Assembly: GCF_016903815.1 (NCBI RefSeq)
Contig: NZ_CP069973.1
Length of the DNA: 64,000 bases
Source: Escherichia coli
Lineage (GTDB): Bacteria; Pseudomonadota; Gammaproteobacteria; Enterobacterales; Enterobacteriaceae
Strand: one strand, 5' to 3'
In this document: piece after piece, positions 13,601 through 16,600 of the stretch
How the letters are laid out: every line of letters starts with the position of its first letter
Position numbering within the stretch: position 1 is the stretch's first letter
Program-made: the position numbers

Positions 13601-16600
13601 ACATCTTCACCTTCGACCAGTGGGGCGTGGAGCTGGGTAAACAACTGGCGAACCGTATTCTGCCAGAGCTGAAAGATGATAAAGAAATCAGCAGCCACGA
13701 TAGCTCGACCAATGGTCTGATTAACCGCTATAAAGCGTGGCGCGGTTAATTAAATAACCTTAATAAAAATGCCGACGTTATGTCGGCATTTTTTATCAGA
13801 TAAATCCCCTTGTCTGTGATTTAACGGAAATCATGCTGTGAGGTTAATCCTAAAATAGATTTTTAATCATGGTTGATTTCGGAAAATACGTAGGATAATT
13901 ATTTTTGATTTCATTTTAACTTTTTGATTTTTAATCTTATTTATATATAAGTTGAAACTTATATTTGATATTCATTCCAATTATCCTAAAACCCCATCGC
14001 TAATTCCCCACACCGTAATTCGCATGCTTTAGTTGTGTATACTCGATCCCGCCCGAAATGTTTTTGGGTAAATCTCCATTCATTCAATGAAGGGAAATTG
14101 TTATGAAAAAAGTTCTGTATGGCATTTTTGCCATATCTGTGCTTGCGGCGACTTCTGCGTGGGCTGCACCTGTACAGGTGGGCGAAGCAGCAGGGTCGGC
14201 AGCAACGTCGGTTTCGGCGGGGAGTTCCTCCGCGACCAGCGTCAGCACCGTAAGCTCGGCGGTGGGTGTCGCGCTCGCGGCAACCGGTGGCGGTGATGGT
14301 TCTAATACCGGGACCACAACAACCACGACCACCAGTACCCAGTAATAAAGTATGTATCCCCAAAATAATTCGAGTTGCAGGAAGGCGACAAGCGAGTGAG
14401 TCCCCGGGAGCATAGATAACTATGTGACCGGGGTGAACGAGTGCGGTCACCGCATCTGCAGCTTGAAGTATGAAGGGGATTAACCATAACCACACTCCGG
14501 TGTGGTTATTCTGCCCCTCTGGAGAAGAGTCGTGAAGCGACCTGCACTCATTCTTATCTGCCTGCTATTACAGGCCTGTTCAGCCACGACTAAAGAGCTG
14601 GGCAATTCACTGTGGGACAGTCTGTTCGGTACACCAGGCGTACAGCTGACGGATGATGATATTCAAAATATGCCCTACGCCAGCCAGTATATGCAGCTTA
14701 ATGGCGGGCCGCAGTTGTTTGTAGTGCTGGCCTTTGCCGAGGATGGGCAACAAAAATGGGTTACTCAGGATCAGGCCACTCTCGTCACACAACATGGTCG
14801 TCTGGTGAAGACTTTGCTTGGCGGCGACAACCTGATTGAAGTGAATAACCTTGCTGCCGACCCGCTGATTAAACCCGCACAAATTGTTGATGGTGCAACC
14901 TGGACGCGCACGATGGGCTGGACCGAGTACCAGCAGGTACGCTACGCCACCGCACGCTCAGTCTTCAAATGGGATGGCACCGATACCGTCAAAGTCGGCA
15001 GCGATGAATCCCCGGTTCGCGTGCTGGACGAAGAAGTCTCCACCGACCAGGCGCGCTGGCATAACCGCTATTGGATCGACAGCGAAGGGCAAATTCGCCA
15101 GTCGGAACAGTATCTCGGCGCGGATTATTTCCCGGTGAAAACCACTCTCATCAAGGCGGCAAAACAATGATTAAACAAACTATTGTCGCATTGATTTTGA
15201 GTGTGGGGGCGTCATCGGTCTTCGCGGCGGGAACCGTCAAGGTATTCAGCAATGGCAGCAGTGAGGCCAAAACGCTGACGGGGGCAGAGCATTTAATCGA
15301 TCTGGTAGGCCAACCACGGCTGGCAAACAGTTGGTGGCCCGGTGCGGTGATTAGCGAAGAGCTGGCAACGGCGGCAGCATTGCGTCAGCAGCAGGCGTTG
15401 CTGACACGGCTGGCAGAACTAGCCGCAGATTCCAGCGCTGACGATGCCGCCGCCATTAACGCCTTACGCCAGCAAATTCAGGCGTTGAAGGTGACGGGCA
15501 GGCAAAAAATCAATCTTGATCCCGATATCGTCCGCGTTGCCGAACGCGCTAACCCACCGTTGCAGGGCAACTACACGCTGTGGGTCGGACCACCGCCGTC
15601 CACGGTCACGTTGTTCGGGCTTATCAGCCGTCCTGGCAAGCAGCCTTTCACTCCAGGTCGCGACGTGGCGAGCTATCTCTCCGGGCAGAACCTGCTTAGC
15701 GGTGCGGATCGCAGCTACGCGTGGGTGGTTTACCCGGACGGACGCACGCAAAAAGCGCCGGTGGCTTACTGGAACAAGCGTCACGTAGAGCCGATGCCCG
15801 GCAGCATTATTTATGTTGGCCTCGCGGACTCCGTCTGGAGTAAGACGCCTGATGCCCTGAACGCCGACATTCTTCAGACTCTGACGCAGCGGATACCTCA
15901 ATAATGAAAAAAAGACATCTGCTTAGCTTACTGGCGCTGGGCATTAGCACAGCTTGCTACGGCGAAACATATCCTGCGCCCATTGGTCCGTCGCAGTCGG
16001 ATTTCGGTGGCGTAGGATTATTACAAACGCCCACCGCGCGCATGGCGCGGGAAGGGGAGTTGAGCCTCAACTATCGCGATAACGATCAGTACCGTTATTA
16101 CTCAGCTTCAGTGCAACTCTTCCCGTGGCTGGAAACAACGCTGCGCTACACCGACGTGCGCACCCGGCAGTACAGCAGCGTCGAAGCGTTCTCTGGTGAT
16201 CAAACGTATAAAGATAAAGCCTTCGATCTCAAACTGCGTTTGTGGGAAGAGAGTTATTGGCTGCCGCAAGTGGCGGTTGGTGCGCGGGATATCGGCGGTA
16301 CGGGGCTGTTTGATGCGGAATATCTTGTTGCCAGCAAAGCCTGGGGGCCGTTCGATTTCACGCTCGGCCTGGGATGGGGATATCTGGGCACCAGCGGTAA
16401 CGTGAAAAATCCGCTCTGTTCAGCCAGTGACAAATATTGCTATCGCGATAACAGCTACAAACAGGCGGGATCTATCGACGGTAGCCAGATGTTCCACGGT
16501 CCTGCCTCACTGTTTGGCGGCGTGGAATACCAGACGCCCTGGCAACCGCTGCGCCTGAAACTGGAGTATGAAGGCAATAATTATCAGCAGGATTTTGCCG

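Follow-up and report, generated by a model that had tools for sequence, protein, structure and literature searches.

A conserved array of Rcs-type elements upstream of yjbEFGH and a fixed threonine run in Escherichia coli YjbE

Results

The window analyzed here, a 64-kb stretch of Escherichia coli DNA, carries the lysC-pgi-yjbEFGH region. The sequence that precedes yjbE is AT-rich, as had been predicted, with a G+C content of 18-20% over 13850-13999, and the yjbE promoter allele of the source strain is rare, being matched at a level of at least 99% in 95 of 5422 E. coli genomes. The features of the region are listed below.

13758..13906, minus strand: match to Rfam RF02053 “STnc430,” a predicted enterobacterial sRNA, overlapping site 1 and box B
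13765..13793, no strand assigned: pgi terminator, a 12-bp perfect hairpin AAAAATGCCGAC / GTCGGCATTTTT with A and T runs on either side
13839..13856, plus strand: site 1, the complete RcsAB-type box TGAGGTTAATCCTA with an AAAT tail after it, including the first ATCCTAAAA
13875..13892, minus strand: box B, the conserved inverted copy, read on the minus strand as TACGTATTTTCCGA then AAT
13890..13902, plus strand: inverted GTAGGATAATTAT of the original prediction, allele-specific
13902..13936, plus strand: TTTTTGATTT...TTTTTGATTTTTAATC direct repeats, mostly unconserved
13975..13991, plus strand: site 2, TTCCAATTATCCTA then AAA, which includes the second ATCCTAAAA
14033..14046, plus strand: invariant block TTGTGTATACTCGA, recognized by conservation and containing the likely -10 element TATACT (14038-14043)
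14051..14069, plus strand: predicted 5′-proximal stem-loop of the yjbE mRNA, GCCCGAAA-UGU-UUUUGGGU
14075..14095, plus strand: predicted Shine-Dalgarno hairpin, AAGGGA paired with UCCAUUC
14103..14345, plus strand: yjbE, 80 aa, Pfam YjbE family PF11106
14313..14333, plus strand: seven-Thr run, ACC ACA ACA ACC ACG ACC ACC, residues 71-77

All the sequences quoted in the original prediction, which pointed to direct repeats and an inverted copy upstream of yjbE, are present in the window. ATCCTAAAA occurs at 13847-13855 and 13983-13991, the sole exact copies in 64 kb (0.57 expected), TTTTTGATTT occurs at 13902-13911 and 13921-13930, and the inverted TAGGATAATT (13891-13900) matches AATTATCCTA (13979-13988) at 10/10 positions. 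Measured against 1000 dinucleotide shuffles of 13795-14102, the significance of these repeats is modest only: the longest direct repeat is 11 nt (P=0.05), the longest inverted repeat is 10 nt (P=0.14), and repeated 9-mers number 6 versus 0.8 (P=0.01). Conservation upholds one part of the predicted set and not the other. The two ATCCTAAAA cores are retained by 6 other Escherichia alleles and, as TC[CT][GT]AAA, by 78 Enterobacteriaceae sequences, whereas the inverted GTAGGATAATTAT and the first TTTTTGATTT are confined to the allele of the source strain. The inverted GTAGGATAATTAT was not found in K-12, S88, 2013C-3033, NT1N34, RM14516, or E. whittamii, shows no conservation across genera, and is probably a chance repeat; the inverted copy that is conserved lies at 13879-13892, not where the inversion had been placed. 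Within TTTTTGATTT...TTTTTGATTTTTAATC, moderate conservation is limited to the second copy's TGAT(T) core and the intervening ATTTTAAC. TCCTAAAAG at 37544 is unrelated, lying within a coding region.

The conserved ATCCTAAAA cores belong to a triad of TC[CT][GT]AAA elements whose order, + - +, is fixed and which precede the yjbE ATG by about 255, 225, and 119 bp. Exactly three such elements exist in 67 of the 78 Enterobacteriaceae orthologues, with a mean of 2.99 per orthologous region against 0.40 expected (n=78), and no other span of the 64-kb window holds three of them within 150 bp. The inter-site distances fall into the classes 35 or 45-46 bp, 88-92 or 99-102 bp, and 123-124, 133-138, or 145-148 bp; the spacing shifts in steps of about 10-11 bp, and the elements are helically phased. 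In 7 species another, divergently oriented gene is found between pgi and yjbE, and the distance from the triad to yjbE is unchanged.

Site 1 is the most complete of the three. Its box (13839-13852, 264-251 bp ahead of the yjbE ATG), of which the first ATCCTAAAA copy is the right half, retains across the 78 orthologues T1 (77/78), A3 (78/78), G4 (77/78), T10 (78/78), C11 (78/78), and A14 (77/78). These are the positions written as capitals in the published RcsAB box consensus TaAGaatatTCcta (PMC4325325), which TGAGGTTAATCCTA matches at 10/14 positions, every capital one included. The resemblance to RcsAB half sites, which had been called loose, is therefore closer than predicted, copy 1 lying in a complete 14-bp box. 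As in known RcsAB boxes, the 14 bp of site 1 form a pseudo-palindrome in which T, A, G ... T, C (A) are conserved, and the site lies a long way upstream of its exopolysaccharide operon, which depends on RcsA-RcsB according to the literature. The TCC(T/G)AAAA tail is common to site 1 and the rcsA and wza boxes of MG1655 (TAAGGATTATCCGAAAAAT and TAAAGAAACTCCTAAAAAC, respectively), where an A-run follows as it does at site 1, and the 264 bp to the start codon happens to be equal to that of the rcsA box. Site 1 differs from the RcsAB box in having G, C, or T in place of A at position 5, and in the two extra phased half sites that stand alongside it in + - + order.

In the other two elements, conservation of the RcsB type is concentrated in the right half. 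In box B (13879-13892, on the minus strand) the left half is weak, and TCC(T/G)A, the right half, does not vary. Site 2 (13975-13988) is centered ~68 bp ahead of the putative transcription start; it has a conserved right half of the RcsB type (T10 77/78, C11 77/78, A14 76/78, and A15-16 78/78 across 78 sequences) and a left half that is not RcsAB-like. The left halves of both are conserved, yet not RcsA/RcsB-like. Compared with the RcsB homodimer box of Salmonella, TN(G/A)GAN4TC(T/C)NA (PMC7913699), each of the three elements fits TC(T/C)NA in its right half, and the variation of the triad across species is confined to the degenerate positions of that pattern. The full exact pattern, in contrast, has no match in 13750-14102 and one in the 64-kb window, at 51800; site 1 misses it at position 5, which is G, not A. 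T13879 of box B, invariant in 78/78, corresponds to MG1655 4,235,682, where a T-to-C mutation reached a frequency of 1.0 in a T7-selected, T7-resistant population (PMC10044975), but the swept mutation may be a hitch-hiker because a yjbH missense change co-occurs.

The 300 bp upstream of yjbE had been described as its leader, which is a misnomer because most of that stretch lies upstream of the likely promoter. The putative -10 element in TTGTGTATACTCGA is preceded by a poor -35 region, GTAATT, and would place the transcription start at ~14050. A scan for consensus promoters and terminators found nothing, as would be expected for an activator-dependent promoter that has no -35 element and for a terminator whose stem is A/T-extended. 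The true leader is probably ~53 nt long and highly conserved, with a 5′ stem-loop and then a second hairpin in which the Shine-Dalgarno sequence would be sequestered; across orthologues, hardly any variation is seen in the -10 block or the leader. Seven of the eight pairs of the 5′ stem-loop are kept in 60-69 of 69 distinct versions, the eighth, loop-closing pair holding in only 29/69, and the pair 14054-14066 covaries (UG 28, UA 26, CG 12 in the 69 versions). This covariation is the sole support for the first hairpin, the fold of the leader having a z-score of -0.7, which is not significant on energy alone. The Shine-Dalgarno hairpin is invariant and therefore carries no covariation information. 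Neither the ~53-nt leader nor the STnc430 match on the opposite strand figured in the original prediction. TTGATT-16-TATAAG at 13924-13951 was considered as a second promoter farther upstream but dismissed, its -10 part being unconserved, and an IHF site on the minus strand (13929 to 13917), which fits WATCAANNNNTTR, is exact in only 17/78 species and is not claimed.

YjbE matches PF11106 over residues 1-79 (E 1.8e-33, 115 bits versus a cut-off of 27.9); an NCBIfam search gave no match, and a homologue search returned mostly truncated or frameshifted database entries and no distant relatives. A Sec-type signal peptide, predicted to be cleaved ahead of AP, precedes what would be a mature secreted protein of 59 residues. 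YjbE had been said to end in seven consecutive Thr: the run is there, but the C-terminus is made of the seven Thr followed by S-T-Q, and the run sits in an invariant tail ending ST(Q/R). Exactly seven Thr are found in the sequences of 75/80 species, in 52 distinct synonymous nucleotide versions. Because its length is fixed despite this synonymous variation, the run behaves in the opposite way to a tract prone to slippage, the term “low-complexity” is misleading, and, judged by its coding sequences, the run is a constrained element and not a generic low-complexity tail. The suggestion of an amyloid-like tail finds no support in composition or in the AlphaFold model: the YjbE sequence contains no imperfect Q/N-rich repeats of the curli/Fap type, and the AlphaFold2 model, of low confidence (mean pLDDT 46.7), contains no strands.

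Discussion

The conserved part of the pgi-yjbE region is, in our judgment, probably an upstream Rcs operator array before an activator-dependent sigma-70 promoter of yjbEFGH, with roles for the transcript and for the YjbE tail. According to published reports, yjbEFGH is under RcsA-RcsB control (PMC5461412 and PMC5651002, which both cite Ferrieres 2007), in agreement with the Rcs regulation that the original prediction gave as known, so that a known link is refined rather than a new one proposed, and the accepted picture is unchanged. The elements of the triad look like RcsA/RcsB-binding sites, and we infer from their sequences which protein might occupy which site. The array would consist of three TCC(T/G)AAAA elements oriented + - +, every one of them a right half site of the RcsB type; RcsB~P together with RcsA would bind site 1, and the half sites would be bound cooperatively on one face of the AT-rich DNA. 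The bound array would then activate the promoter with the weak -35 region and the -10 element TATACT (14038-14043). Relief of H-NS silencing is raised as a possibility solely because the DNA is so AT-rich, and a literature search for yjbE with H-NS yielded no direct evidence of H-NS control. The transcript from ~14050 would carry the 5′ stem-loop and then the hairpin occluding the ribosome-binding site, which are the roles that we infer for the leader structures, ahead of the YjbE coding sequence.

The distance of site 1 from the inferred start, ~205 bp, is far for direct activation and counts against the array, as do the G at position 5 of site 1, the left halves of box B and site 2, and the attribution of a TCCTAAAAT-containing motif to another activator in a preprint discussed below.

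It seems unlikely that the protein occupying the TCCTAAAA(T) elements is another activator or a composite one, for example RcsB with another partner, and not RcsA-RcsB. A candidate is an osmotic-shock activator put forward on the basis of Reg-Seq footprinting of yjbJ and ybaY: a Reg-Seq preprint ascribed a motif that is non-palindromic and has TCCTAAAAT as its right half to an unidentified activator and listed yjbE among the candidate targets (10.1101/2025.05.13.653802). The conserved left halves of box B and site 2, which are not RcsAB-like, and the presence of AATAATCCTAAG in the yjbJ promoter of the window would agree with such an activator, but the left half of site 1 is of the canonical RcsAB kind, its TNAG being invariant, the literature reports RcsA dependence of yjbEFGH, and the call of yjbE in the preprint is a position-weight-matrix score only. 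A full-text literature search for TCCTAAAAT gave irrelevant matches only. A bolder and rather improbable extension is that the triad, rather than being a plain RcsAB operator, serves as the docking platform of an RcsB-containing hetero-complex, this complex being the osmotic activator whose footprint at yjbJ/ybaY ends in TCCTAAAAT, and, separately, that the invariant YjbE tail could be a specific acceptor or primer for attachment of the Yjb polysaccharide before export by YjbH. If the hetero-complex does exist, the yjbE array would be its best-conserved natural target.

Alternatively, site 1 and box B might not be protein-binding sites but the stem of an sRNA, STnc430, whose minus-strand transcript would begin near 13906 and run as far as the pgi terminator, an RNA structure that we regard as improbable. 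The match to RF02053 is full length and, at 85 bits, scores above the gathering score of 47, and the sequence is the same syntenic pgi-yjbE intergenic one; the consensus structure pairs UCCGAAAA with UUUUAGGA, a -10-like TAAAAT lies upstream (minus strand, 13918 to 13913; aligned TAnnnT in 42/77 species), and the terminator is symmetric because A and T runs flank its hairpin. The family, however, stems from an unvalidated bioinformatic prediction, an orphan promoter/terminator candidate with 0 cDNA reads in both libraries and “np” in the Northern column (Sittka 2008), and its proposed helix, tested in 77 orthologues, is without covariation support. The RNAalifold consensus has 0 pairs; of the pairs in the inner helix, 4 are constant, and the sole variable pair, the one with changes on both sides, is CG in 28, UG in 19, UA in 4, and broken in 26 of the 77 sequences. 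Variation in one arm is independent of that in the other and is restricted to the degenerate positions of the RcsB box. In addition, the sites persist in the 7 species where the pgi terminator no longer adjoins them, site 2 falls outside the RNA, and the swept T-to-C mutation would merely change an A-U pair to G-U. The STnc430 match is thus probably not a structured RNA, and RF02053 probably models conserved protein-binding DNA plus a terminator. The pgi terminator doubles as the 3′ end of the match. The remaining explanation, that the repeats are functionless chance products of very AT-rich, fast-evolving spacer DNA, is highly improbable as an account of the region, being the best one for the allele-specific TTTTTGATTT, GATTTTTAATC, and GTAGGATAATTAT in particular and in keeping with repeats that are singly near chance expectation, but already refuted for the TCC(T/G)AAAA triad by its invariant bases, fixed orientation, and quantized spacing in 78 sequences.

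The proposed Rcs array and the YjbE tail are of interest because yjbEFGH is a recurrent target in experimental evolution to mucoidy, phage resistance, and predator resistance (PMC8540638, PMC10044975, PMC8117528), while its product and promoter architecture are little described in the literature that we reached. A base-resolution, phylogenetically supported map with three phased Rcs-type sites, a core promoter, and a two-hairpin leader provides precise targets for mutagenesis, and the strict conservation of the seven-Thr run turns the vague label “Thr-rich” into a testable length constraint.

The conserved tail, seven Thr followed by ST, probably has a specific function within the YjbFGH system for outer-membrane export. 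O-glycosylation, which had been suggested for it, has already been floated for the YjbE paralogue GfcA (YmcD), for which O-antigen modification and export through GfcD were suggested (PMC8592465); a length fixed at seven in 75/80 species is atypical of mucin-like O-glycosylated tracts, which vary in length and sequence. The sole hint of amyloid, an indirect one, is that the N-terminal half of YjbH was matched by fold recognition to the amyloid transporter FapF (PMC9603273). GfcA is encoded by gfcABCDE-etp-etk, the group 4 capsule operon paralogous to yjbEFGH, and like YjbE it is the first protein encoded and, by its description, small and Ser/Thr-rich with a signal sequence. YjbE is the shorter of the two (80 versus 101 aa), and it carries one strictly fixed seven-Thr run in an invariant tail, in contrast with the general Thr richness by which GfcA is described.

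Locus and conserved elements upstream of yjbE

The window is 100% identical to strain 7/2 across 10.2-18.0 kb, and the four Yjb proteins have Pfam matches to YjbE, YjbF, GfcC-N/C and YjbH, so the original prediction was right in its assignment of yjbE. The features of the region are as follows.

Features of the E. coli locus around yjbE
Within 10.2-18.0 kb, minus strand: lysC
12100-13749: pgi, upstream of yjbE
13839-13852, plus strand: site 1, Rcs-type element, TGAGGTTAATCCTA
13879-13892, minus strand: box B, inverted Rcs-type element, plus strand TCGGAAAATACGTA
13975-13988, plus strand: site 2, Rcs-type element
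14103-14345, plus strand: yjbE, followed by yjbF, yjbG and yjbH

Sequence comparison indicates that the conserved signal would be a phased array of three Rcs-type elements together with a compact structured leader. Rcs regulation of yjbEFGH and the Thr-rich nature of YjbE were already known, and the present additions are incremental: a site-level map, doubt on the predicted sRNA STnc430, and the fixed length of the Thr run.

We fetched 80 orthologous loci from other Enterobacteriaceae via YjbF and aligned the 345 bp upstream of yjbE, which gave 78 distinct sequences. The motif TC[CT][GT]AAA is found 2.99 times per orthologous region versus 0.40 expected, with exactly three copies in 67 of the 78 species, always in the order +/-/+ at about -255 (+), -225 or -217 (-) and -119 (+) from the yjbE ATG; nowhere else in the window do three copies fall within 150 bp. 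An inverted copy, as had been claimed, therefore exists as the third member, but its true place is box B. In site 1, T1, A3, G4, T7, T10, C11, A14 and the tail residues A15-16 are each kept in 77-78 of the 78 sequences, while variation is confined to positions 2, 5, 8, 12 and 13. The published RcsAB consensus TaAGaatatTCcta, in which the right half is assigned to RcsB (PMC4325325), has its capitals at the invariant positions, and the degenerate positions of the structural RcsB box TN(G/A)GAN4TC(T/C)NA (PMC7913699) are the variable positions 12 (C/T) and 13 (T/G). In box B and site 2 the right half and A-tail are conserved and the left halves are weak or different; box B, which is TCCTAAAAT in most genera, has drifted to TCCGAAAT in Escherichia. 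The E. coli rcsA box TAAGGATTATCCGAAAAAT and wza box TAAAGAAACTCCTAAAAAC resemble the yjbE sites, and, as a curiosity, the rcsA box and site 1 each begin 264 bp before their own start codons. Activation of yjbEFGH by RcsA-RcsB is stated in the literature (PMC5461412, PMC5651002).

The distances between the elements form discrete classes that differ in steps of about 10-11 bp (site 1 to box B, 35 or 45-46 bp; box B to site 2, 88-92 or 99-102 bp; site 1 to site 2, 123-124, 133-138 or 145-148 bp), and indels therefore preserve helical phase, as would be expected if the bound proteins shared one face of the DNA. In seven Enterobacteriaceae species (L045, L015, L048, L053, L054, L060 and L064) about 2 kb separates pgi from yjbE, and in L045, the one of these loci inspected, a 485-aa gene divergent to yjbE lies between them (772-2229). 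Because the triad stays at -256, -217 and -121 from yjbE in these species despite the longer spacer, it belongs to yjbE and not to the pgi terminator. Adjoining the terminator, at 13796-13809 on the minus strand, is a conserved block that in most genera reads GGAATTATC(T/C)(G/T)AT. It is similar to an RcsAB box (RGGAATTATCYKA) except for a T within the A-tail; it might be a fourth Rcs-type site, or might be conserved merely as part of the terminator U-tract.

Phage-selected mutation and the predicted sRNA STnc430

When MG1655 was selected with phage T7, population Ph5 fixed a T-to-C change at 4,235,682, pgi/yjbE -224 (PMC10044975). The changed base is the T in the TCGGA of box B, at window 13879; all 78 of 78 orthologues have it, and it corresponds to A14 on the minus strand. 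The mutation is an independent experimental hint for the element, while hitch-hiking is possible because the same population carries yjbH Y102S (PMC10044975).

A minority rival is that site 1 and box B are conserved as the paired arms of STnc430 (Rfam RF02053), a predicted sRNA. The family matches at full length on the minus strand from 13906 to 13758 (85 bits versus a gathering score of 47) and stops in the symmetric pgi terminator; box B and site 1 are paired in its consensus structure, which could account for their conservation. We rank this reading low because STnc430 originates solely from an "orphan promoter/terminator" prediction, for which the Sittka 2008 supplement, under pgi/yjbE, records 0 reads in each of the two libraries and "np" for the Northern blot; because RNAalifold gives 0 consensus pairs across 77 orthologues; because four helix pairs never vary, and the sole pair changed on both sides is CG in 28, UG in 19, UA in 4 and broken in 26; because the two arms vary independently; and because the position of its upstream -10-like TAAAAT is TAnnnT in only 42 of 77 species. 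The Ph5 change, moreover, would merely turn an A-U pair of that helix into G-U.

Repeats and allele variation

Every string quoted in the original prediction is present in the window. The ATCCTAAAA repeat lies at 13847-13855 and 13983-13991, with no further exact copies in the 64 kb; TAGGATAATT (13891-13900) is a 10/10 inverted match to AATTATCCTA (13979-13988); TTTTTGATTT lies at 13902-13911 and 13921-13930; and an 11-mer not listed there, GATTTTTAATC, is present twice. G+C is 18-20% across 13850-13999. Compared with dinucleotide shuffles of 13795-14102, the repeats taken singly hardly stand out (P=0.05 for the longest direct and P=0.14 for the longest inverted repeat), and the repeated 9-mer total is modestly high (P=0.01). 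In the 78-sequence alignment, the strongly conserved blocks contain both ATCCTAAAA cores, while the inverted GTAGGATAATTAT and the first TTTTTGATTT lie outside them. Six further Escherichia alleles, those of K-12, S88 and E. whittamii among them, all keep both cores, and none has TAGGATAATT or the duplicated TTTTTGATTT. The prediction was thus correct that this is a regulatory region and in its choice of regulator family, but only part of its repeats is conserved, and the eye-catching AT-rich ones are, judging from these comparisons, probably for the most part allele-specific noise.

The promoter allele is itself rare, with at least 99% identity in 95 of 5422 E. coli genomes, 4894 of which match at only 90-95%. 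Across the 308-bp promoter region there are roughly 20 differences from K-12, most of them in a hypervariable AT-rich stretch at 13860-13945. The pgi-yjbE spacer is 353 bp here versus 498 bp in K-12; directly after the pgi stop codon MG1655 has an insertion of about 145 bp (L002 109-255) that the window strain lacks (13749-13750), and which, by eye, we take to be REP/BIME-like.

Core promoter and leader

The block TTGTGTATACTCGA at 14033-14046 is essentially invariant in the alignment, and its TATACT (14038-14043) is likely the -10 of the yjbE promoter, with transcription probably starting at about 14050. The -35 position is GTAATT, which fits activator dependence and explains why a consensus promoter scan upstream of yjbE found nothing. 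Downstream of this block, the approximately 53 nt that precede the ATG hardly vary. The stem-loop at 14051-14069 shows structure-preserving change across 69 distinct versions: the pair 14054-14066 is UG in 28, UA in 26 and CG in 12, and at two further pairs GC and GU replace each other. A second hairpin (14075-14095), in which the Shine-Dalgarno AAGGGA is paired with UCCAUUC, is invariant and thus uninformative.

The YjbE protein

YjbE has a typical Sec signal (MKK...SAWA, predicted cleavage before AP), and its mature part, 59 residues long, is rich in A, S, G, T and V. Seven Thr do occur, at residues 71-77, but they do not end the protein, since S-T-Q follows. From genus to genus the C-terminal segment ending in T7-ST(Q/R) hardly changes; 75 of 80 sequences have exactly seven Thr in the run, and the other five, of the Kluyvera group (three named Kluyvera), have T5-S-T3. 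The run occurs in 52 nucleotide versions, and every one of its codons varies synonymously, a pattern that indicates purifying selection on its length as well as its identity. This is not how a slippage-prone or merely compositional tract behaves, and the label of a low-complexity tail is misleading. As to the suggested amyloid-like character, the YjbE sequence has no amyloid-subunit features. AlphaFold2 gave no confident fold for YjbE (mean pLDDT 46.7; mature part below 50). For the paralogue GfcA, it has been proposed that glycans are attached (PMC8592465), and the N-terminal half of YjbH matched the amyloid transporter FapF by fold recognition (PMC9603273). The candidate mutation of a mucoid clone is an in-frame +9 bp insertion in yjbE (PMC8540638), which suggests that this small protein matters. 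Many YjbE entries in databases are truncated or carry frameshifts and read into the +1 frame (P0028, P0035, P0040, P0047 and P0048), which suggests that errors of sequencing or assembly, or true frameshifts, are common in this G+C-rich repetitive gene.

Other observations in the window

The sole exact match in the window to TN(G/A)GAN4TC(T/C)NA, TAAGATTTATCTAA at 51800-51813, is not significant alone because about 2.6 chance matches are expected per window. Some 60 bp downstream of it, at 51871, begins a 531-aa ORF that on inspection by eye resembles the c-di-GMP phosphodiesterase PdeC/YjcC. The yjbJ promoter carries at 35555-35575 (ATG at 35656) AATAATCCTAAGCC, with a TCCTA half site like that of yjbE, and a Reg-Seq preprint places at yjbJ the footprint of a putative osmotic activator with the right half TCCTAAAAT. 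The yjbE-yjbF spacer contains a full-length ERIC/IRU-like repeat (14354-14477), of which K-12 lacks 72 nt and which 10 of 11 sampled other genomes match in two pieces with about 72 nt skipped; copies elsewhere occupy a median of 4 places per genome. We take it to be ERIC from the classic ERIC primer sequences, and it gives sub-threshold Rfam matches to V_AS5, Ysr49, CssrA and isrH. An IS1 insertion in the same spacer has been reported to cause sedimentation resistance (PMC8117528).
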